Shown here: piece by piece, positions 19,047-47,939 of the stretch
How the letters are laid out: every line of letters begins with the position of its first letter
Position numbering within the stretch: the stretch's first letter is position 1
Origin: Escherichia phage PH1062
Sequence record: OQ680139.1
Strand: one strand, 5' to 3'
Length of the DNA: 49,857 bases
Program-made: the position numbers and the translations under genes
Notes under the pieces: generated by a model
Seen by the model: the letters and a program-made list of their open reading frames with translations, nothing else
What the model was told of the DNA's origin: nothing
The model's database searches: none

Positions 19047-19565
19047 TTAAATCTTATCAAGAACGCTTCTTACGGCATCCTCAACAGTCTGGGTGTCATT
19101 GACTACATTGTTGACGTTAACCTCAGCGGCCTTGTCAATGCCAATTTCTTTACCTACGAATCCAGCGTTAATGATATTTGATGCAGCAAGCTGATATTTT
19201 TGCTCACGGATGACTGAGTCAACGAACTCCATCACTTCAGCGAATCCAGGTGATGCGCGCCAGCTCTGAATTGATCTTGCCGTAACTCCGCAGTACAGGC
19301 AGAAGCCATTCAAAGTGAAGATGCGAGGCTTATGCACTAGGTTTTCAGTGACAACGCCCTGGAAGCTCGCCGTTTCGATTGCCTTAATTGCCTGGTCCTC
19401 GGCCCATGAGAAATATTTAACCGCAAGGTTGAATACAGTCTCTGGTGTCATTGGGTGGCGGTGGCTCAGGTTGGCGATATCGCCATACTTTTTATTGTAC
19501 AGCTCTTTGAAGTTGCCAATGCGCACCTTCTCTTGAGCGGTGCTGGTGAAGTTTTCATCTTTCAT
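19047..19565 (-). CDS. Terminase small subunit
   Basis: 172 aa immediately upstream of the large subunit. Confidence 0.6.
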   Translation of the reverse strand: MKDENFTSTAQEKVRIGNFKELYNKKYGDIANLSHRHPMTPETVFNLAVKYFSWAEDQAIKAIETASFQGVVTENLVHKPRIFTLNGFCLYCGVTARSIQSWRASPGFAEVMEFVDSVIREQKYQLAASNIINAGFVGKEIGIDKAAEVNVNNVVNDTQTVEDAVRSVLDKI

Positions 19566-19875: not shown

Positions 19876-20027
19876 CTTAATACCCCTTTTGCTTTTTCTT
19901 CTTTCGTTAATTGATGTAATGATTATGCCTACATCTAATCAATTCATCAAATCAATTTATTAATCGAATCGATTGAGTATATTTATCTTTGATATGAAAA
20001 AAGCACCCCGAAGGATGCTTAAATGAA

Positions 20028-21895: not shown

Positions 21896-21940
21896 ACTAT
21901 ACCGCTACCCCGATTCTGAGTTTTAACAAAAAGTGCTATC
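21896..21940 (-). promoter_or_regulatory. Family promoter A: 20 bp element, 19 bp spacer, TATAGT
   Basis: Sense strand AATAGCACTTTTTGTTAAAA; -10 sits in the loop of inverted repeat GGGGTA/TACCCC; followed by CCCATCGAAACGAA. Confidence 0.55.
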
Positions 21941-27481: not shown

Positions 27482-27690
27482 CGAACGATTTCGAATTTAG
27501 CCATTATGACGCCAAGGCTTTTTATCATAAGAGCTTCACCTATCGTCTTCACTATGTACTCATTGCCATCAACCTTGATGTAGTATGAGCCATTAAAGCG
27601 AGTGATTGGCTTAGCCTTGTATATCCCACCATTCACGACTGAAAGGTTGTGGTGATTGGCTTGCCTTACATACACACATTTTATAAGCAT
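27463..27690 (-). CDS. Hypothetical protein
   Basis: 75 aa ending ...NSTNC. Confidence 0.5.
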   Translation of the reverse strand: MLIKCVYVRQANHHNLSVVNGGIYKAKPITRFNGSYYIKVDGNEYIVKTIGEALMIKSLGVIMAKFEIVRNSTNC

Positions 27691-28256
27691 TAATGCTCAC
27701 CATTCAGGAGAGATTTCGCTTTCCGGTAGAACTGGATGGCCTTCTCCACCTCATCGGCATCATAGCCATGAATCATGTCTGAGCTTGCCTGCAATTTGCT
27801 ATGAGATTTGCGCTCAACCGATCTCCATGAGTCGCACCACTTGTGAATGTCTCTCCCATACATGCCCACCAGGTATGGGTGTGCATATATCTTGTCACCA
27901 ATAAGGCAAATGATTCCAGCGTCCTGTAGTGATGGTAGGATGTTGTCAATCAGGTTATTCATTACTCCATTACGCTCGACGAACGGCTGGACCTTTCTGA
28001 TCGCCTCATATGTTGAGCGAACTCCCACAACGCCTTTTCCATTTATCGCTTGCTTCCAGATATTTTCAACCACGACGCATTGTTCACGATTTAGGTTTGC
28101 GCGACGCATAACTTCTACTTCGCACCAGTACTTTTGTGACTGTCGGTATCCGTTAGCATTGATTGCAATTCGTAGTGGTGGAAGCCCATCTTCCGTAGCA
28201 ATCTTCATAATCTGCTCATCTGTCAGCTTCTCTTCGTTAAAATCAAACATCCCCAT
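27690..28256 (-). CDS. Short paralog of the 30528..32111 NTPase (shares its N- and C-terminal domains, lacks the P-loop core)
   Basis: N-terminus MGMFDFNEEKLTDEQIMKIATEDGLPPLRIAINANGYRQSQ and segment INGKGVVGVRSTYEAIRKVQPF...LIGDKIYAHPYLVG match both ends of the 527 aa protein. Confidence 0.6.
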   Translation of the reverse strand: MGMFDFNEEKLTDEQIMKIATEDGLPPLRIAINANGYRQSQKYWCEVEVMRRANLNREQCVVVENIWKQAINGKGVVGVRSTYEAIRKVQPFVERNGVMNNLIDNILPSLQDAGIICLIGDKIYAHPYLVGMYGRDIHKWCDSWRSVERKSHSKLQASSDMIHGYDADEVEKAIQFYRKAKSLLNGEH

Positions 28257-28777
28257 TATTTCGTCTCCCTAATCATTTCCTGGTACATTTTGATTGCCTT
28301 GATGGCTCCTGTAATCTCATCGCCTTCAAACTCAGTCACGGATGGCATCAGCTTGAGTATTTTGACCTTAAAGTCGCTCACGGCCTTCTCTGCAATCTGG
28401 CCGTTTGCCTTCACTCGCTTTCCTGTCTGGATTGCGCCATCAACCAAAGACAGATAAGCACAACGAACCTCTACGTCATCACCGAAATCACCATCCTTAA
28501 TTGAAAGTTTTGCACGAACGTTTGCCGCCTGTATCTCTGGCATCCTGGCTACCGTATTGGCGACATATGACGCCTTCAGCTTTGACATGCTGTATCTGCC
28601 ACCTACATCCAGATCCTCACGACTTATGCCTCCCATATCACTAGATGTGAGGCCGTAAACCTGGCGAGCTATTAGATGGATTGGGACGTGGTAGCTGCGG
28701 TTCTCGGACTTGAGCGCTTGCTCCGCCATGTAGCGGACGACATCGCCCAGGCTTACGTGTTGATTATGATTTGACAT
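28256..28777 (-). CDS. Hypothetical protein, first gene of the leftward operon
   Basis: 173 aa; first ORF downstream of the sigma70-like promoter at 28820-28848. Confidence 0.6.
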   Translation of the reverse strand: MSNHNQHVSLGDVVRYMAEQALKSENRSYHVPIHLIARQVYGLTSSDMGGISREDLDVGGRYSMSKLKASYVANTVARMPEIQAANVRAKLSIKDGDFGDDVEVRCAYLSLVDGAIQTGKRVKANGQIAEKAVSDFKVKILKLMPSVTEFEGDEITGAIKAIKMYQEMIRETK

Positions 28778-28819
28778 AGATATTACTCCTGATTGGTGGT
28801 CTTCGTTAAGATGGGTGCA

Positions 28820-28848
28820 ATACTACCAGTGTGGTTACATGTTATCAA
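28820..28848 (-). promoter_or_regulatory. Sigma70-like early promoter TTGATA-17-TAGTAT (leftward)
   Basis: Hexamers at 17 bp spacing ~45 nt upstream of 28777; spacer carries GTGGTTACATGT, also found at 47464-47475. Confidence 0.5.
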
Positions 28849-29068
28849 GTGTTATTGATGCAAGTGTTCGACTTAGTTACGTTTTGCGACCTCTCGCCCC
28901 AGATATAGCTCAATGTAAAGTCTGCGTATAGTTTGTAGATAAGTATTTTTAGCAAATGGGCCCCTACATGACCTTTTATTCCTACAATGTCGTCATATTC
29001 CTACAGGTGTAGGAAAATATCATAGAAAACTATCGCAATATCACATATCCACTATCTACATTATCTAC

Positions 29069-29145
29069 ATATATATATATTAATAATAATAATATAGATA
29101 AATGGTTATTATATAAGGATATTTTAATGTAACCATGGCGTAATT
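29069..29145. repeat. AT-rich conserved block, copy 1
   Basis: (AT)n, AATAATAATAA, GATATTTTAATGTAAC and GCGTAA in the same order as at 47687-47757. Confidence 0.7.
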
Positions 29146-29410
29146 CAGCGTGATATGCGTACATGATTCCTACGGAGTGCTGGTGTGTCTACATGGCATA
29201 ACATGCATAACGCGTATGCGCTAGAAACGTGTGGCGGGAAAGTCCTACCAGGAGATCAAGGGATCAGATCTCACCCCATCATTCCCCCCATCAATGAATC
29301 ATTGCTCAATTCGCAACAATCGAAAACATCATTGCAAACGATGCAATATTGCTATATGTGCAATAGTGAAGTGAATTATTGCAATAGCTGCAACAATCCA
29401 TAAATCGAAC

Positions 29411-29456
29411 GAATAGCACTTTTTGCTAAAGACATAAATCATCATTCTGGTAATAT
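29411..29456 (+). promoter_or_regulatory. Family promoter I (rightward): element, 20 bp, TAATAT
   Basis: GAATAGCACTTTTTGCTAAA on the plus strand; first rightward-oriented copy after the AT-rich region. Confidence 0.5.
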
Positions 29457-29642
29457 GTATCTCAAGGAAGCAGTGAAGCGAACGCCAAGTAGCTACTTCC
29501 CAGAAGTCGAATCGTCCAGATGAAAAATGCTGGCGAGTGTTGAGAAAGGGCACGTTGAGTCACTTCCGAACAGGTAAACTCCTAGACACCTTCTCCGGCA
29601 GCAAAGTCTGACCGGGTTCTTCGAAAAAGCAGTGAAGGTATT

Positions 29643-29688
29643 GAATAGCACGAAATGTTAAAACAGAAGTGAAGAAAGCAGGTATAGT
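29643..29688 (+). promoter_or_regulatory. Family promoter I2 (rightward): element, 20 bp, TATAGT
   Basis: GAATAGCACGAAATGTTAAAA; 126 nt upstream of 29815. Confidence 0.5.
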
Positions 29689-29814
29689 CAGTACATAGAG
29701 AACGGGGTGGGAAGTAAAGAGCCGAACGGCCTCCTGATGGAACAGGATAACCACTAAAGCAGAGATGACATCAAAGCGAACCTCTAGCAAAGCACAGTAA
29801 ACCATTGACGAGAG

Positions 29815-30039
29815 ATGAAAATGAACCAGGATCTTAATAAAATTGCTTTCAACAATACCATCGCTGACATTGCTGCCAAGGTAGATCTATCCCGCAATCC
29901 CGTTAAGCAGATCGCTTCTGAGTGTGAGTTCTTCGCATCGCAGATTGAAGGTGACGAATACAAGAGAGTGTTTGCAGCCCTAAGTAAATGCAAAACACGC
30001 AAAGCAATGAGTATAATCATCAATAGCACGAATTGCTAA
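29815..30039 (+). CDS. Hypothetical protein
   Basis: 74 aa ending ...NSTNC, the last five codons being the family element. Confidence 0.5.
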   Translation: MKMNQDLNKIAFNNTIADIAAKVDLSRNPVKQIASECEFFASQIEGDEYKRVFAALSKCKTRKAMSIIINSTNC

Positions 30040-30066
30040 AGCCCTTCGGGGCTTTTCCTGTATATT
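30022..30066 (+). promoter_or_regulatory. Family promoter J (rightward): element, terminator-like hairpin spacer, TATATT
   Basis: AATAGCACGAATTGCTAAA; spacer GCCC-ttcg-GGGC plus TTTT; followed by CATCCCATCGAAACGAA; 36 nt to ATG 30103. Confidence 0.55.
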
Positions 30067-30102
30067 CATCCCATCGAAACGAAACACAAAAAGGCAAACA
30101 AA

Positions 30103-30456
30103 ATGACTACTACTATTACTAGAAACTGGATTAGCAACGAAAATGTACTCTATAAAGCTCGCGTTAAAAATGGCGTAGAGCAAATCAAGAAAGATGGAAA
30201 ATGGATTAACCTTGAAGAGCGCGGCAAGTACATCAAGACAAAGACCATTTACTGCACAAAGGTTAATCATCGCTCATCCATTCGTAAGTACTTCACTGAA
30301 GGGAAGCGATATCAAGTGGATCTCCATGCTGGACTTGGGCAGCGCGCTGGATACATTTACGATAAGGAGGGCAGCGCATGGCAGCTATATCGTGACGAAG
30401 ATGTTGGGTTTGTATCACTGTGTGGAACTTATCGCTGGGAAGCTCAGTACAAATAA
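30103..30456 (+). CDS. Hypothetical protein
   Basis: 117 aa. Confidence 0.6.
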   Translation: MTTTITRNWISNENVLYKARVKNGVEQIKKDGKWINLEERGKYIKTKTIYCTKVNHRSSIRKYFTEGKRYQVDLHAGLGQRAGYIYDKEGSAWQLYRDEDVGFVSLCGTYRWEAQYK

Positions 30457-30527
30457 GTAGCATTTTTTGGCAAGCGGTCTTACCATAGGTGCGTTAACAT
30501 TGGCGCACCAACTAAGGAGTTATTTTA

Positions 30528-32111
30528 ATGTTTGATTTCAACGAAGATAAATTGTCAATCGATCAGGTCATGGCTGTAGCCGCTGCCGATAACCTGCCAC
30601 CTCTACGCGTAGCAATCAACGCGAACGGGTACAGGCAAAGCCAGTCATTCTGGAAAGCCCCAACAGAGATTGACTCAGGCGGTGACAAATATCCGGTAAT
30701 TTCACTTGGTAACGATTATGATGTCGTTGGTAAACTGTCAAGCAATGCCGCTCGTTCTGTTCAGTTCCCCGAGTCGTCCGCTTACATGCATTTCCTCGGA
30801 TGCATATCAGCCGCCATGCTGGGCCGATTTACGGTTGAGTATCACGGAACACAACAGCCTACCGCGCTGTACGTCGTAACCAGTCAGCCGCCATCGACGG
30901 GTAAATCAGCCATTAACTCACTTTCGCTGGCCCCGATGATCGCAGAGACTGAGCGACTCAACGAGATCAGAAAGCGTGACCGCAAGAAGATTATGGCTAA
31001 GCTCTCCGCTCTATCCAAGGAGATGAAGCAGGAGAAATCACCATCTGATATGGCGGCTCTGTTTGAGGAGAAAGAGGAGCTTGAAGAAAAACTTGAACGA
31101 CTCTGTGACATCGTTTTCCCCGTATCCGACACCACGCCGGAAGGTCTTGCGCGAATCAACAACCGCCAGGGAAACTTTGCAGTGATCTCGGATGAAGCAA
31201 CGAGCGTGAACTCACTGTTAGGCATGACCTATGGTGACGGCTCAAAGAAAACGAACAGCGAGCTTGTGCTTAAGGCGTGGGATGCTGGTAACGTATCTAT
31301 CGCCCGTGCGAACGCAGACAATAACATGAGCTTCATTGCGATGGGCTGCATATCTGTAATTGCACAGGATGAAACAATCAACGCGATCATGAATGCTGGT
31401 GCGCGTGGTATCGGTGTGTCAGAACGTTTCTTGCTTGTGCGTGAGAAGTCATTCCTTGGCGAGCGTGTATTCGTTGACGAAAAAGGAGAATCAACATACG
31501 AGCCTATTGATGGCGGACTCAAGGCGGACTACTTCCGTCTGGTCCATGAGATCATGAGCGAACACGAAGTCAACCTGACAGTAAGCACGTCGGCGATGAA
31601 ATATCTCAACCGTGCGCGTCAGGATATGGAACCTCACCTTGCGGACGGCGGGAAGTATTCACACACAATGCTTCGCGGCGCGCTGGGTAAGTTCGATAAG
31701 CAGGCTATCAGGATCGCGGCTGTTCTTCACACTGTGCGTAACTGGTTTAATCCCAATGGCGGGAGTCCGCAGAAGTCCAGAGAGATTGAGCTTGACACAA
31801 TGCAGGAAGCGGTAATTATGTTCCAGGAACTGAGTAAGACTTATCTGTCATCTGCAAACGCTGCTGGTCATGCTGGCGACCATGCGGAGATGAATAAGCT
31901 GATCGATATTCTGATCAAGCAAGGTAAGAACGGGAAAGGCGTTGTAGGTGTACGATCCCTATATGAAGCGGCTCGCAAGGTTAAACCCTTTGAAGGGCAA
32001 AGTGGTGTAATGACTCGCATCAAAGATCACCTGATCCCTATGCTTGATGAGAAGAACTACACGTGCCTGATTGGTGATAAAATTTACATTAATCCGCGAC
32101 TGCTGGGGTAA
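30528..32111 (+). CDS. P-loop NTPase of unknown function (putative replication-associated ATPase)
   Basis: 527 aa; Walker A QPPSTGKSA, Walker B-like FAVISDEA; termini shared with 27690..28256. Confidence 0.55.
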   Translation: MFDFNEDKLSIDQVMAVAAADNLPPLRVAINANGYRQSQSFWKAPTEIDSGGDKYPVISLGNDYDVVGKLSSNAARSVQFPESSAYMHFLGCISAAMLGRFTVEYHGTQQPTALYVVTSQPPSTGKSAINSLSLAPMIAETERLNEIRKRDRKKIMAKLSALSKEMKQEKSPSDMAALFEEKEELEEKLERLCDIVFPVSDTTPEGLARINNRQGNFAVISDEATSVNSLLGMTYGDGSKKTNSELVLKAWDAGNVSIARANADNNMSFIAMGCISVIAQDETINAIMNAGARGIGVSERFLLVREKSFLGERVFVDEKGESTYEPIDGGLKADYFRLVHEIMSEHEVNLTVSTSAMKYLNRARQDMEPHLADGGKYSHTMLRGALGKFDKQAIRIAAVLHTVRNWFNPNGGSPQKSREIELDTMQEAVIMFQELSKTYLSSANAAGHAGDHAEMNKLIDILIKQGKNGKGVVGVRSLYEAARKVKPFEGQSGVMTRIKDHLIPMLDEKNYTCLIGDKIYINPRLLG

Positions 32112-36107: not shown

Positions 36108-36342
36108 ACGCGAAATCCTCGGGGCAATCGCGCTTATAGTCTTCCAGATCTTTACGTATTGCACGGCTCCAGCTATTAAGTGGCTTATCTCTAATCTCTT
36201 CAAATGACATATCCAGATCTGAGAACTCCCAAGCGTCACCATTAAACCCCGATTTAGTTAGCTCCTTGCAGACGATCGCGCGGAATAAAAGATACTGACC
36301 ATTGTGGTTTAGATTAATTTTCATACCGCTCATTTTAAACAC
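36106..36342 (-). CDS. Hypothetical protein
   Basis: 78 aa. Confidence 0.5.
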   Translation of the reverse strand: MFKMSGMKINLNHNGQYLLFRAIVCKELTKSGFNGDAWEFSDLDMSFEEIRDKPLNSWSRAIRKDLEDYKRDCPEDFA

Positions 36343-37063
36343 TCCGTTTACGTGGTTTCTTACGGCTTACGCCAGGGCAAATATCAGCGACGCTAACATA
36401 TGTAGTCTTCTGCGTCTCGCCTTCTTTCAGTTTTCGCATGACAAAAATCACGCTACCTTTATTGTTGCCATCGACAGGCTTTCCTGTCAGTCCAGAGATG
36501 AAGGCCAGGCGCCCAGTCCGGCAATATTCCTGACCGTCAATCTCCGTGATGTCAGCCTCGATCCAGATGATTTCAGCCGCGTTACGTCTTGCTTCGGCAA
36601 ACCACGCCGTTGAGTTATCACCAGGAAGCAACATATCAATCTGATTGTTGTGTTCCATTTGCTCAATCGCTTTCTTCACGAAAGTATCTGGATGTGAGTA
36701 CGGAGGATTCAGCCAGATGTGCTTATTGCTACCCCACCAGATTTTGAGGCAGTTCACTTGTTCGCTGTAGAACTTTTCGCAAACAGCATTGTTAGCGCTG
36801 GCGGCGGCGTCAATGTCATACTTCCCATAACGCGACTCCATCCATGAGATCACTTCGCGGTCGGTGGCCCAAAGGTCACGAACTGCGTCAGGCGTCTTGC
36901 TTCCGGCGTATCGGTTTCCAGTTACCCGATAGAAGGTGTCCGGCTTAACCGACTGATAATGACCGTTACCAGGAACAAGCGCATTGGTAACAAAGTTTTC
37001 ACGCTCGATCTGTTCAAAGCTAACGAATGTGTCATGGGTATCTTTGTCATTTGAGTCGATCAT
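36335..37063 (-). CDS. dam: DNA N6-adenine methyltransferase (phage Dam-type)
   Basis: 242 aa; DIDAAAS (AdoMet-binding-like) and NPPY catalytic motif. Confidence 0.75.
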   Translation of the reverse strand: MIDSNDKDTHDTFVSFEQIERENFVTNALVPGNGHYQSVKPDTFYRVTGNRYAGSKTPDAVRDLWATDREVISWMESRYGKYDIDAAASANNAVCEKFYSEQVNCLKIWWGSNKHIWLNPPYSHPDTFVKKAIEQMEHNNQIDMLLPGDNSTAWFAEARRNAAEIIWIEADITEIDGQEYCRTGRLAFISGLTGKPVDGNNKGSVIFVMRKLKEGETQKTTYVSVADICPGVSRKKPRKRSV

Positions 37064-40023: not shown

Positions 40024-40497
40024 ATGAATGCAACTGATAAGCGTACTCTTAACGGTAACAACGGAACTATCCGCACGGAAGATAAGAAGCAGCGTAAGCG
40101 ACCGTCAGGTTACTATGTTCTCAAGGATGAAGTAAAGGCCGGATTAAGAGCGCGACTTGATATTGTATTTGAGTTCTACGGCAGCAAGGCGAATATGGCG
40201 AAGCAATTAAAAGTTACTCGCCAGGCGGTCGAAGAATGGTTTAAGCGTGGCATGATGTCGGCACGCGGCGCTCAACTGGCGCACAACAGATATAAGCGAA
40301 CTGGCGAAGGGTTCCGCGCTACATTCTGCCGACCGGATTTGCAATTCGACGGCAACGGTAAACCGCTGACACTGCGTTGCAAAAAGCGTCACATGCTGCG
40401 CGTCGTCACCGAGGCTGAACTAGCCACTAAGCCTGAATGTCGCTCATGGCGAAAAATTAAAGCAGCAAACGAAGCAGCACGAAAAGCTAAAGAATGA
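40024..40497 (+). CDS. Cro/YdaS-like helix-turn-helix DNA-binding protein (putative regulator)
   Basis: 157 aa; YGSKANMAKQLKVTRQAVEEWFKRGMMSARGAQLAH resembles Cro/YdaS HTH; basic termini. Confidence 0.5.
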   Translation: MNATDKRTLNGNNGTIRTEDKKQRKRPSGYYVLKDEVKAGLRARLDIVFEFYGSKANMAKQLKVTRQAVEEWFKRGMMSARGAQLAHNRYKRTGEGFRATFCRPDLQFDGNGKPLTLRCKKRHMLRVVTEAELATKPECRSWRKIKAANEAARKAKE

Positions 40498-40528: not shown

Positions 40529-41077
40529 CTATCTATCTCCGTCACACCCAAACTCACCATGATAATAATTACTGGCTTTTAAGTACGCTTCACGCGCCGA
40601 CTCCTTTGTGGTATGCCTTCCTAGCCATATTTTTTTATTATTAACCCATATCCACGCCGTGTACTTCCCTGTTTGCTTGCAGAATCCAACGCCTTTTACT
40701 CCTGATGTATTGTGAGATGGTTTTTTCATATTTCTATTGTTCTCAGATGATGACGCTTCCCTTAGGTTTTCTATCCTATTATCAGTCCTGATCCCGTTTT
40801 TATGATCTATATACTTAGAAGGCCATTCACCTTTACAAAGCGCCCATGAAACCCTATGGCATTTAACGTCGAATCCGAAAAATCTGAAAACCTTATAACC
40901 AGATTTATGGACCGTTCCGGCCTCATCTCCAGCCTTAACCCTATTAGATGTGCTTTTTACCCAAATTATAACTCCGTTGTCGTATTTAAGGTAATTCCTA
41001 AGCATATCAATACTAATCAATGACTCTTTTGCCTTCATTAAATCAAAGTCTTTGCTCATTTCATTTTCCTCATTCAT
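40529..41077 (-). CDS. HNH homing endonuclease with AP2-type domain (start may be Met at ~41059)
   Basis: YIDHKNGIRTDNRIENLREASSSEN then SGVKGVGFCKQTGKYTAWI; minus-strand gene inside a plus-strand block. Confidence 0.75.
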   Translation of the reverse strand: MNEENEMSKDFDLMKAKESLISIDMLRNYLKYDNGVIIWVKSTSNRVKAGDEAGTVHKSGYKVFRFFGFDVKCHRVSWALCKGEWPSKYIDHKNGIRTDNRIENLREASSSENNRNMKKPSHNTSGVKGVGFCKQTGKYTAWIWVNNKKIWLGRHTTKESAREAYLKASNYYHGEFGCDGDR

Positions 41078-41091
41078 GTGTTATGCTTTTA

Positions 41092-41121
41092 ATCATACCA
41101 ACCGTAACATGAGATAGTCAA
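41092..41121 (-). promoter_or_regulatory. Sigma70-like promoter TTGACT-18-TATGAT for the HNH gene
   Basis: Hexamers on the minus strand; -35 overlaps the primase start codon region. Confidence 0.45.
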
Positions 41122-42047
41122 TGATGGATATGTATCAAAAAGAGGAAGTTATACCTTACATGAAGGGTCTTTGGAGGGAAGCTCTGCAATCAATATGTGG
41201 CCTTGATAACTCATACTTCACGAAGCGACATGGGCCATGCCCGCATTGCTTTGGAAAGGACCGTTTTCGCTGGACTGACAATATTAACACCCCAGGCGAC
41301 GGCGGCGCGATCTGTAACTCATGCGGAAACGACTCAGGGATCGGTTGGTTGATGAAGTTAACTGGTATGCCATATAGCGAATGCATAAACATCCTGGGGA
41401 GATTTCTTGGAAAGGTTCCGCAGGAATACATTGTCAAGGCGAACAAGAAAGCGCGCAGGACTCCGGTAGCTGGCATCAATGTCATGATGGCAGATCATGA
41501 AGCGGTAATGAAAGTTATGGGGCGCACGGAGAAGCGTGTAAATACGCCACTAAGCATGTTTGAGTCACTGCCTACTGAATCATTCGATGTCGGCGTAAAA
41601 CTTCGTGAGGATGGCGGTGAGAGCGTATTTCACACCATACCGTGTCAACTTGTGCATGAGGATGGTCTTGATGACGAGTTTTGCAATATTTTGATTATTG
41701 ATGAAGAAGGAAGGGAGTCATTTTACGCGAAGAAATACACGAGTTGCTCAGTTGCCGTGACTGGTAAAACTGAAAAGGCGATATACTTATGCCTGAACTG
41801 GATTGATGCTCAGCATATTGCATTTCACACAAAGCAAGAAGTGTGGGCCTGTTTCACCCCTGAAAACCTCGAGATGGTTGCGTACAGATACAAAGGGGAT
41901 CGGGAGGTAATGGTGGCATGCGAACCGTCTGACAAAGAAACTTTGTATATGGCGGATGACCGACAATTAAAAATAATCATCCCGAACCCGGGAGGATACC
42001 GTTCAGGAATGCAAGCCAAGCTGTTCTCAGCAAGCGATCTGCTCTAA
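41121..42047 (+). CDS. DNA primase (zinc-ribbon plus catalytic domain)
   Basis: 308 aa; N-terminal GPCPHCFGKDRFRWTD...AICNSCG zinc-binding motif. Confidence 0.6.
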   Translation: MMDMYQKEEVIPYMKGLWREALQSICGLDNSYFTKRHGPCPHCFGKDRFRWTDNINTPGDGGAICNSCGNDSGIGWLMKLTGMPYSECINILGRFLGKVPQEYIVKANKKARRTPVAGINVMMADHEAVMKVMGRTEKRVNTPLSMFESLPTESFDVGVKLREDGGESVFHTIPCQLVHEDGLDDEFCNILIIDEEGRESFYAKKYTSCSVAVTGKTEKAIYLCLNWIDAQHIAFHTKQEVWACFTPENLEMVAYRYKGDREVMVACEPSDKETLYMADDRQLKIIIPNPGGYRSGMQAKLFSASDLL

Positions 42048-47416: not shown

Positions 47417-47434
47417 TTGTTGTTGATGTGGGTA

Positions 47435-47462
47435 ACTATACGCGCTTGGTTGCCTTAGTCAA
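47435..47462 (-). promoter_or_regulatory. Sigma70-like early promoter TTGACT-16-TATAGT (leftward)
   Basis: Hexamers just upstream of 47416; GTGGTTACATGT abuts the -35. Confidence 0.5.
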
Positions 47463-47686
47463 GTGGTTACATGTAGATATTTGTAATCACGTGTATGCAA
47501 TGGCGTTAGTTACATAAAATGGCTATCCAGCCCAGCTATGGCTTGATGTAAACATCGTGTATATCGTGTATACCACTTTTCGCGGATGGTGCATTAGTGT
47601 ATGCGTGATTAGATACTGTATAAATATACATATTAGAAATTTATAAGCGGAATACTCTATAGAAGTAGTTACACGATATACACAGT

Positions 47687-47757
47687 AATATATATATAAT
47701 AATAATAAGAGTAAAAGGTTGATATATATAGATATTTTAATGTAACTAATGCGTAAA
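47687..47757. repeat. AT-rich conserved block, copy 2
   Basis: Same sub-motifs and order as copy 1 at 29069-29145. Confidence 0.7.
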
Positions 47758-47855
47758 TCTGCGTAACAGCGCGTATATCATTTTCAGCGGAAGAGATTGT
47801 ATACATCGAGTTACATCGGTTACGTGTATATCGTTGCATTTGCATACTTGACACC

Positions 47856-47900
47856 AAAAAGCACGAATTGCTAAAACTCAATTAATGGTTGGTGTATAGT
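47856..47900 (+). promoter_or_regulatory. Family promoter Q (rightward): element, 18 bp, TATAGT
   Basis: AAAAGCACGAATTGCTAAAA; followed by CACTCAATCGAAACGAA. Confidence 0.5.
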
Positions 47901-47939
47901 CACTCAATCGAAACGAAATTCACTTGCTAAGGACTCAAA

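Follow-up and report, generated by a model that had tools for sequence, protein, structure and literature searches.

The stretch of DNA analysed here (the window, 49,857 nucleotides (nt)) is the sequence record OQ680139.1 of Escherichia phage PH1062, a complete Drexlerviridae (T1-like) genome with the gene order of T1 and Rtp. We focus on the gap at positions 28778–29410, ~630 nt that hold no genes. Leftwards from 28777 runs an operon of the DUF7174 gene, a 188-amino-acid (aa) protein, many small genes and the small terminase (TerS), continued by the large terminase, the portal and the structural genes; on the rightward side, small open reading frames (ORFs) precede a 527-aa DUF3987 nucleoside triphosphatase (NTPase) annotated as a helicase. 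Phages of the T1 type are well known as contaminants in the laboratory and are considered for use in phage therapy. We studied the sequence anatomy, conservation and paralogy of the gap and aligned the published packaging termini of relatives to the window. We conclude that the gap is a real, conserved control region of several parts. In our judgement it is probably the main cis-acting control region of a T1-like phage, built of four adjacent elements and not of one origin; one of them, a near-invariant block of repeats, coincides with the packaging start of related phages (Table 1).

A conserved non-coding gap between divergent operons

The gap matches 128 phage records and, among the matches listed, most have no annotated gene under the match. 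A 72-aa ORF at 29185–29403 is disrupted by a 4-nt indel in most aligned relatives, and we rejected a coding role since the ORFs inside the gap are short and not conserved; the non-coding status given to it by the first-pass annotation, which was made from the letters of the window, thus holds. An Rfam search of the window gave no match at the gathering score (the sole match in 28700–30150 had E = 0.78), a tRNA search found none, and a search of E. coli genomes and plasmids for copies of the block or the AT-rich module, as in satellites or plasmid origins, returned no match.

We aligned the gap with 12 relatives from several genera. Positions 28850–29040 and 29225–29290 are variable, an AT-rich module at 29054–29165 is conserved, and 29295–29432 forms a nearly invariant island that terminates in a 21-nt box. 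The neighbouring DUF7174 protein is only ~32–55% identical between phages that share this island. Around the gap, P817 (Nouzillyvirus) and p111 are ~92–95% identical to the window.

Repeats are dense in the gap: 17 distinct 8-mers occur at least twice, against 6.3 ± 3.2 in dinucleotide-preserving shuffles (2 of 300 shuffles reach 17), an excess of which the simple AT/TAA tract supplies part. GTAGGAA has four copies in the gap and three elsewhere in the genome. The individual repeats listed in the first-pass annotation lie where it had put them, namely ATTCCTACA at 28978 and 28997 (found nowhere else in the genome), ATCTACAT at 29054 and 29063, GCATAAC at 29196 and 29205, TGCAAT at 29342, 29359 and 29380, and TTGCAA at 29332 and 29379. 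Its (AT)n tract is real as well and reads (AT)n(TAA)n at ~29066–29095, and its description of the gap as a regulatory hub is borne out by a conserved leftward sigma-70 promoter, operator-like repeats and a first rightward promoter, all predicted within the gap.

Table 1. Features of the gap, of its paralogous copy and of candidate proteins acting on them
Positions	Strand	Feature	Basis or remark
19047–19565	-	Small terminase, presumed pac-binding protein	Pfam GP3_package, E = 2e-9
27690–28256	-	188-aa stand-alone paralog of the helicase C-terminal domain	
28820–28848	-	Putative leftward early sigma-70-type promoter of the DUF7174 operon	Consensus scans
28978–29018	.	Operator-like set: direct repeat ATTCCTACA (28978, 28997) and palindrome	Repeat analysis
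29054–29070	+	Two copies of ATCTACAT, 9 nt apart, abutting the AT tract on its left	
29066–29127	.	(AT)n(TAA)n tract, then TAAATGGTTATTATATAAGGATATTTTAATG core; candidate DNA-unwinding element or IHF-bent segment	Stability z = 5.5
29127–29160	.	ATGTAAC (inverted GTTACAT), then three GCGT (29138, 29148, 29157) about one helical turn apart	
29196–29220	+	Two GCATAAC and conserved TAACGCGTATGCG	
29254–29270	.	Three GATC sites (29254, 29262, 29267); putative first-cut zone	Site count and terminus alignment
29295–29410	.	Block near-invariant across genera; candidate pac recognition region	Alignment of 12 relatives
29412–29456	+	Putative first rightward promoter, family-specific class	Box and -10 at fixed distance
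30528–32111	+	DUF3987 NTPase ('helicase'), candidate origin-binding helicase	Pfam DUF3987, E = 3e-39
36335–37063	-	Phage Dam methyltransferase; could methylate the GATC cluster of the cut zone	Pfam PF05869, E = 7e-60
47417–47901	.	Paralogous control module in the second divergent gap	Self-match, alignment, stability and promoter scans

A near-invariant block at the packaging start of relatives

The block at the right-hand end of the gap combines several repeat families: ATCATTGC at 29298 and 29328 (extended by A in places), ATTATTGC at 29375, GCAACAATC at 29313 and 29390, and three TGCAATA units (29342, 29359 and 29380), together with a dyad GCAAT-ATTGC centred on 29347/8 and a 32-nt imperfect direct repeat (29295–29326 and 29372–29403). 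It is near-invariant across Braunvirinae, Rogunavirinae and Nouzillyvirus, and both of its flanks diverge. GCAATATTGC occurs once in the genome, two of the three GCAACAATC copies are in the block, and self-BLAST detected no second block.

Packaging termini from four relatives fall in or beside this block. The T1 record opens with an annotated terminal repeat of 2,800 bp, 538 nt upstream of the first early gene; when the T1 genome is circularised, its position 1 lies in the T1 counterpart of the block, where GCAACAATCACATC occurs twice, within the second copy. The packaging (pac) site of TLS was mapped by restriction analysis (PMC11447400), and in our alignment TLS position 1 lies at the place equivalent to the blocks of T1 and the window. 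For MSK, PhageTerm placed the packaging start at 36,862 on the forward strand (p = 1.6e-9; PMC8421802), which aligns to window position 29263. The UDF157lw record was re-opened at its PhageTerm result (PMC10838988), and its position 1 aligns to 29270. The MSK and UDF157lw termini, determined independently in phages of different subfamilies, are thus 7 nt apart. In the orientation of the window, packaging proceeds leftward in all four relatives, through the early genes towards the terminase. The authors of the SU57 study also put a T1-like pac site in this untranslated region (PMC7718038). The window block and T1 have the ATCATTGCA and GCAACAATC motifs in common, in the same divergent gap, and by this synteny and motif content, set against the experimentally placed pac site of the family, the block is a candidate pac.

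Because the packaging termini of four relatives map there, the TTGCAA and TGCAAT units are better read as a pac region, and the repeats of the block most likely mark the packaging start already known for Drexlerviridae. For PH1062 itself we favour the block as the pac region, an assignment we regard as probable though far from secure. It would place the packaging start of this phage within ~150 bp by homology and, if it is true, the gap is an ordinary syntenic feature of the family. The small terminase, whose sequence is 28% identical to gp3 of phage L and of other P22-type phages, would then bind the repeat block as a member of the P22 gp3 family. The large terminase may make its first cut ~25–45 nt to the left of the block, near 29263–29270 and on the triple GATC, and headful packaging would go leftward through the early genes. 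The genome has 199 GATC sites, and nowhere else do three of them fall within 20 nt; the triplet is limited to the Nouzillyvirus-like lineage. Here and below, we infer every protein–DNA contact, the cut position in PH1062 and all promoter activity from the sequence.

Several points weigh against the pac assignment and the arrangement built around it. The cut zone was transferred by alignment from relatives that are ~70–77% identical across the gap, and the MSK mapping assumes the same numbering in the paper and in the GenBank record. In T1, position 1 is within the block and not on its left, and the geometry of the cut therefore varies among lineages. TerS shares 54% identity with its Rtp counterpart and 52% with that of T1, yet the block is near-identical to that of Rtp and only motif-similar to that of T1. 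The block instead tracks the DUF3987 helicase (93% identical to Rtp versus 57% to T1) and an unlinked helix-turn-helix (HTH) regulator (89% versus 53%), and this covariation fits a binding site of the helicase or the regulator as well as it fits a pac. Linkage can explain this covariation and confounds the comparison, because the block adjoins the helicase operon. The promoters assigned on either side are consensus matches, and promoter-like sites are no commoner than in shuffles (7 versus 6.5 ± 2.3). Covariation between TerS and the block was also tried as a test; it had no power to discriminate, TerS being about equally distant from Rtp and T1, evenly along its length and in every segment.

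An AT-rich module duplicated at the second divergent gap

The first-pass annotation had noted a block of ~75 bp shared with 47687–47757. The shared block is real and larger than claimed: 29073–29168 matches 47688–47782 with 79.6% identity over 98 nt (E = 7e-15), and these 98 nt are the best-preserved part of a longer collinear similarity. A global alignment pairs 28778–~29225 collinearly with 47417–~47860, 69% of the 435 aligned positions being identical, with a score of 240 compared with 93 ± 11 for shuffles and a maximum of 118.5 among 200 random genomic segments. The two divergent gaps of T1 are also similar to each other (z = 8.6). In PH1062 the second gap is a largely unannotated stretch that is conserved in 143 phage records. 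It carries a leftward TTGACT-16-TATAGT (47462–47435), the AT tract (47685–47744), ATGTAAC, three GCGT and a 21-nt-box promoter (box at 47858–47875, -10 at 47896–47901). Neither self-BLAST nor motif counts found a pac-type block there. Packaging does not start at this second gap, yet the AT module is found there too, and so the module probably does not give pac its specificity; the AT tract once linked to pac in T1 is part of a module that occurs twice per genome.

The AT tracts stand out in duplex stability. The least stable 60-bp duplex of the 49.9-kb genome is 29068–29127 (z = 5.5) and the second least stable is its paralog at 47685–47744 (z = 5.1), with the next unrelated site, 19935–19994, at 3.5. 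By its low stability 29068–29127 is a putative AT-rich unwinding element.

We compared the core of the module in six sequences, that is, both copies from the window, Rtp and Msk. The conserved order is two TACAY units, (AT)n(TAA)n, TAAA(A/T)GGTTGATATATATAGATATT, ATGTAAC, three GCGT spaced 9–10 nt apart and TAACGNGTAT. The AT tract and the core are conserved in both paralogs of these three phages and recognisable in T1 and TLS. Both the paralog (47712, - strand) and the R1 copy of Msk match the core of the binding site for integration host factor (IHF), WATCAANNNNTTR, exactly, and the copy at 29.1 kb departs from it by two mismatches; TAAAAGGTTGATA is the exact IHF core on the other strand, and the genome contains only five exact matches, one of them that at 47712. 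The arrangement of ATGTAAC and GCGT recurs in the paralog (GCGT at 47751, 47761 and 47771), in Rtp, in Msk and in T1 R1 (GGCGTAATTTGGCGTAATTT). TAACG(C/T)GTAT, further to the right, is retained in orthologs and paralog. At the left edge, the second copy of ATCTACAT is a one-mismatch DnaA box (TTATCTACA); what relatives and the paralog retain at 29054–29070 is two TACAY units (TATACA, GTTACAC), not the DnaA-box match. The gap has two one-mismatch DnaA boxes in all, neither kept by relatives, and we rejected a DnaA-dependent origin because every box carries a mismatch and is unconserved.

The motif GTTACAY is concentrated in the two gaps, which hold 7 of its 13 genomic copies in 2.3% of the sequence (p = 5e-9); the corresponding fractions are 5/8 in T1, 7/18 in Msk and 4/17 in Rtp. 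The AT tract is flanked by a copy at either end, the two being inverted relative to each other. In both gaps of TLS, GTTACAY is replaced by TGTTCAC on one flank of the tract and by GTGAACA on the opposite flank. Positions of these TLS motifs in the gap extracts are ~410–430 and ~143 for gap 1 and ~2770 and ~2998 for gap 2. The flank motif of TLS differs at both copies together, as it would if a single phage protein read both modules, and one sequence-specific phage protein probably binds both copies. The TLS motif TGTTCAC is possibly similar to the iteron of type I (TGTTCACC) in satellite phage P4.

Within the AT module we found no sigma-70 sites with at least 9 of 12 matches. A distance of ~220 nt separates its tract from the leftward core promoter, and the rightward core promoter is at least 110 nt away. 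In the scheme that we propose, the second element is a module of ~450 bp (28778–~29225, with a second copy at 47417–47860) that has the most easily melted AT tract of the genome and the IHF-like core at its centre; the twin copies may serve as an origin or as an array of operators.

Putative promoters on both sides of the module

The leftward promoter is predicted from a -35 hexamer TTGATA (28848–28843), a 17-nt spacer and a TG-extended -10 hexamer TAGTAT (28825–28820), with the start codon at 28777. Most of the 12 aligned relatives retain the -35 hexamer, which reads tatcaa on the + strand, together with a TAnnAT -10, and by sequence this is a putative sigma-70 promoter diverging from the rightward one. 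As the first step of the scheme, unmodified host RNA polymerase would read it and transcribe the long early operon that runs towards the terminase genes.

Upstream of it lies an operator-like palindrome, TTCCTACA-GG-TGTAGGAA, that spans 28995–29018, with a fourth half-site at ~29167. Sd1 and 12210I carry TTCTGACA-GG-TGTCAGAA, in which both arms are changed and the dyad is preserved; the element is absent or deleted in Rtp, ES and IME542. Such two-arm changes suggest the operator of a co-evolving dimeric protein.

Rightward transcription would start from a promoter of another kind. A box, AATAGCACTTTTTGCTAAAG (29412–29431), is followed after 19 nt by a TG-extended -10 hexamer TAATAT (29451–29456), with no canonical -35 in the promoter (29412–29456); the invariant block ends 2 nt before the box. 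Boxes of the pattern ATAGCAC-N3-TTGNTAAA occur in 18 good copies in the window, all oriented along the direction of transcription (for example at 21922, 22320, 23675, 24500, 25374, 26184, 27190 and 27462 on the - strand and at 29645, 30023 and 47858 on the + strand). At the same constant distance downstream, 13 of the 18 window copies have a TATAGT-like hexamer, as do 15/19 copies in Rtp, 11/17 in Msk and 12/20 in T1. The dyad TAGCA-N5-TGCTA within the box is at a fixed 22 nt upstream of the -10 hexamer and centred near -42. This 21-nt repeat of the family has been described in TLS, its function left open by the authors (PMC11447400).

The positions of box and hexamer give these sites the geometry of putative class II activator-dependent promoters. 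The 21-nt boxes look like the activator-binding halves of phage-specific promoters, which gives them a testable reading, and the Cro-like HTH protein encoded at 40024–40497 is a candidate activator. In the scheme, the promoter at 29412–29456, with its dyad near -42, a -10 and no -35, would act as is typical of promoters driven by a dimeric activator. We rejected TTGCTA or TTGNTA in the box as a plain -35, which at 22 nt from the -10 is too far away. A sigma-54 site was rejected too: TAGCAC-N3-TTGC has AG, not GG, and a spacer 2 nt short compared with TGGCAC-N5-TTGC, and this reading is further disfavoured because a sigma-70 -10 follows at a fixed distance. About half of the box copies read TTGTTA, which would still pair by G–U wobble in RNA, and a role as an RNA hairpin is possible.

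Downstream of the first rightward promoter, ~350 nt (29462–29815) have no + strand ORF of at least 40 aa. This stretch contains a second box promoter (29645) and AAGCAGTGAAG-like units at 29465, 29624 and 29661. Rtp has nearly the same stretch; Msk, C119 and others run directly into a gene. The RNA fold of 29462–29645 was no better than that of shuffles (z = +0.72), with no Rfam match. The stretch possibly encodes tiny peptides or serves as an unstructured leader.

Candidate proteins for the module

The C-terminal domain of the DUF3987 NTPase (aa 439–526) is a winged helix that it has in common with the 188-aa paralog encoded left of the gap. Sequence searches of PDB and Pfam with this domain yielded nothing useful; the fold search alone was informative, the winged helix resembling Orc/Cdc6 initiators most. 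The helicase as a whole is 93% identical to the Rtp and Msk proteins while the structural genes are ~50% identical. Rtp is without the small paralog yet retains the block. Between the window and T1, which have the same flank motif, the winged helices are 55% identical; between the window and TLS, which have different motifs, they are 64% identical. We looked for a winged helix of the helicase or an HTH regulator that tracks the type of flank motif among the window, Rtp, T1 and TLS and found no correlation for either.

Origin, iterons or operators

In T1-like phages no replication origin could be found (PMC11447400, PMC7718038), and our survey of the literature turned up no transcript maps or origin data for Drexlerviridae. 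The AT module may be a replication origin and its 47.7-kb paralog a second one, which is compatible with a pac in the neighbouring block; we take this as a serious possibility without favouring it, and we grade in the same way the scheme that goes with it, in which a phage protein would occupy the flank motifs and GCGT, IHF would bend the DNA, the AT tract would melt and the DUF3987 helicase would be loaded, with a separate primase. Such a function would suit a family whose origin is still to be located (PMC11447400, PMC7718038). It also agrees with the two AT tracts being the two least stable duplex segments of the genome, with inverted repeats around the tract, an IHF-like core and helically phased repeats in both copies and five phages, and with the TLS flank motif, whose difference in both copies at once points to one protein. 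The module, moreover, has no sigma-70 promoter (at least 9 of 12 matches) and is far from both core promoters, and the winged helix of the adjacent helicase is most like that of Orc/Cdc6 initiators. On the other hand, the repeat cores are short, 4–7 nt, the DnaA-box match has one mismatch and is not kept by relatives, the similarity of the winged helix is independent of the type of flank motif, and DNA that is AT-rich, IHF-bent and protein-coated is just as characteristic of regulated divergent promoters. GC skew, which we discarded as an indicator of an origin, is uninformative, as it follows gene orientation.

For the twin AT module the sequence evidence thus fits an origin and a regulatory array alike, and a regulatory role, in which the module holds timing operators for two divergent promoter pairs, fits equally well. 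The AT-rich twin module is the best candidate for the replication origin of the family, and as a candidate origin pair it could be the part of the gap that is new; it names two short, clonable origin candidates. More speculative is the picture, which we put forward tentatively, that Drexlerviridae have two paralogous origins, one per large divergent gap and one of them directly adjoining pac. Their build would be archaeal- or viral-like, with an AT tract, an IHF bend and inverted flank motifs that co-evolve in both copies, and they would be served by the DUF3987 helicase with its Orc/Cdc6-like winged helix, the stand-alone copy of this domain being a regulator; these two extensions we hold as tentatively as the picture itself.

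The first-pass annotation had placed the origin signature elsewhere, in iterons next to an AT-rich tract. In this version the TTGCAA and TGCAAT units at 29290–29400 would be iterons bound by the DUF3987 NTPase and its mini paralog, with the AT tract as their unwinding element. We consider this very unlikely. Iterons would be at least three direct repeats of ~17–22 bp in helical phase, whereas the TGCAAYA units are irregularly spaced at 17, 21 and 9 nt, and the only phased repeat set in the gap is GCGT, three copies at 9–10 nt, with cores of 4–6 nt. The units do not lie beside the AT tract but ~200 nt away, the block as a whole being ~170–230 nt from it with variable DNA in the interval. Packaging termini of four relatives lie in or beside the block, and Rtp keeps it without the mini paralog. 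In its favour, a dyad and more than one family of repeats are present in the block, the block co-varies with the helicase (Rtp 93%, T1 57%) and not with the small terminase, and the helicase and its paralog share a winged helix of a DNA-binding type; the covariation, however, is confounded by adjacency in a mosaic genome. What stands of that proposal is an origin-like layout, which sits in the module around the AT tract, and what falls is its attribution to the TTGCAA/TGCAAT block.

The gap could also be purely transcriptional. Its repeats would then be operators that time the switch from early to later promoters at both gaps, the AT tract a bent spacer or one bound by H-NS or IHF, the block a regulator array and the termini incidental, each of which we think unlikely. 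Both gaps do part divergent transcription units with predicted promoters, the 28995–29018 palindrome keeps its dyad through the two-arm changes in Sd1 and 12210I, the Cro-like HTH protein is 89% identical to that of Rtp where neighbouring genes reach only 43–50%, and the block stops 2 nt short of the 21-nt box. This leaves the convergence of four independent terminus determinations unexplained, the second gap works without such a block, and the AT module is too distant from the core promoters for an UP element.

Comparison with known systems

The pac of T1 and TLS is the closest counterpart. It shares with the window the syntenic position, in the divergent untranslated gap that separates the small early genes from the operon of the DUF3987 helicase, as well as the direction of packaging and the small-terminase family, and T1 also shares ATCATTGCA and GCAACAATC. 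T1 differs in being without the central dyad and the TGCAATA units of the window, and the TLS block is an AATCA-type repeat. Position 1 of T1 is within the block, whereas the MSK and UDF157lw termini are ~25–32 nt to its left.

The pac of P1 consists of GATC-containing hexamer repeats around an IHF site, and its cleavage is under the control of Dam methylation. The window resembles it in the GATC cluster at the putative cut, a phage Dam and an IHF-like core within ~150 nt, and by analogy the cluster and the methyltransferase may recall the Dam-controlled pac of P1. Unlike P1, it has three GATC sites on one side, confined to the Nouzillyvirus-like lineage, and no arrays of TGATCA/G hexamers, and the terminase belongs to the P22 gp3 family, not to that of P1 PacA/PacB.

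With P22 and Sf6 the window shares a TerS that matches Pfam GP3_package. The pac of P22 lies within its small-terminase gene; the block of the window, in contrast, is ~10 kb from terS. In the middle of the block, at 29337–29344, the window has AAACGATG, and the aligned bases in Rtp-type relatives (Rtp, Msk, JulesPiccard and Sd1), whose small terminases are homologs of P22 gp3, are ATCTGAAG. The latter 8-mer, absent from the window, is the same as the core of GAAGATTTATCTGAAGTCGTTA, the P22 pac sequence given in PMC11447400. The identity is only a lead, because a chance 8-mer match is expected ~0.05 times.

For the AT module, the comparison is with iteron plasmid origins (pSC101, R6K gamma) and with archaeal origin recognition box (ORB) elements, which likewise combine a meltable AT tract, an IHF-type core, phased repeats and flanking inverted repeats. 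Archaeal Orc1-Cdc6 origins are further matched by the Orc/Cdc6-type winged helix on the NTPase that neighbours the gap. Iterons measure 17–22 bp and ORB elements ~22–36 bp; the repeat cores of the window are, by contrast, 4–7 nt long, and no Rep or Orc homolog is found by sequence. SPP1, for which a passage in PMC3485210 describes an early and a late origin, oriL and oriR, resembles the window in its two module copies per genome.

The 21-nt boxes have counterparts in class II promoters (CRP or FNR at -41.5, lambda cI at PRM) and in the MotA middle promoters of T4. Likenesses are the 15-bp dyad near -42, a good -10, the lack of a -35 at the usual spacing and the many box copies ahead of genes; the difference is that the activator of the boxes, the Cro-like HTH protein, is a candidate only.

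Mosaic relationships and neighbouring genes

By protein identity the genome is a sharp mosaic. The identity to the Rtp and Msk proteins is 93% for the DUF3987 helicase, 89–92% for its C-terminal domain and 89% for the HTH protein, against 43–56% for the terminase, portal, capsid, primase and a 700-aa helicase. Compared with T1, the primase is 92%, the DUF3987 helicase 57% and the HTH protein 53% identical. Segments 30103–32111, 40024–40497 and 41121–42047 are parts of this mosaic, in which the helicase, a gp07-like protein and the HTH regulator are 79–94% identical to their Rtp and Msk counterparts. The HTH gene forms a conserved island between two divergent neighbours, themselves 43–50% identical to those of Rtp.

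The first and last 111 nt of the window are identical, and so the window wraps a circular assembly. A tandem repeat with a 99-nt period and 99% identity lies at its start (positions 7–111 versus 106–210). Between the HTH regulator and the primase, 40529–41077 on the - strand encodes an HNH endonuclease that has an AP2 DNA-binding domain. A strong sigma-70-like promoter, TTGACT-18-TATGAT with TG (41121–41092), lies ahead of the gene, which probably codes for a mobile homing endonuclease.

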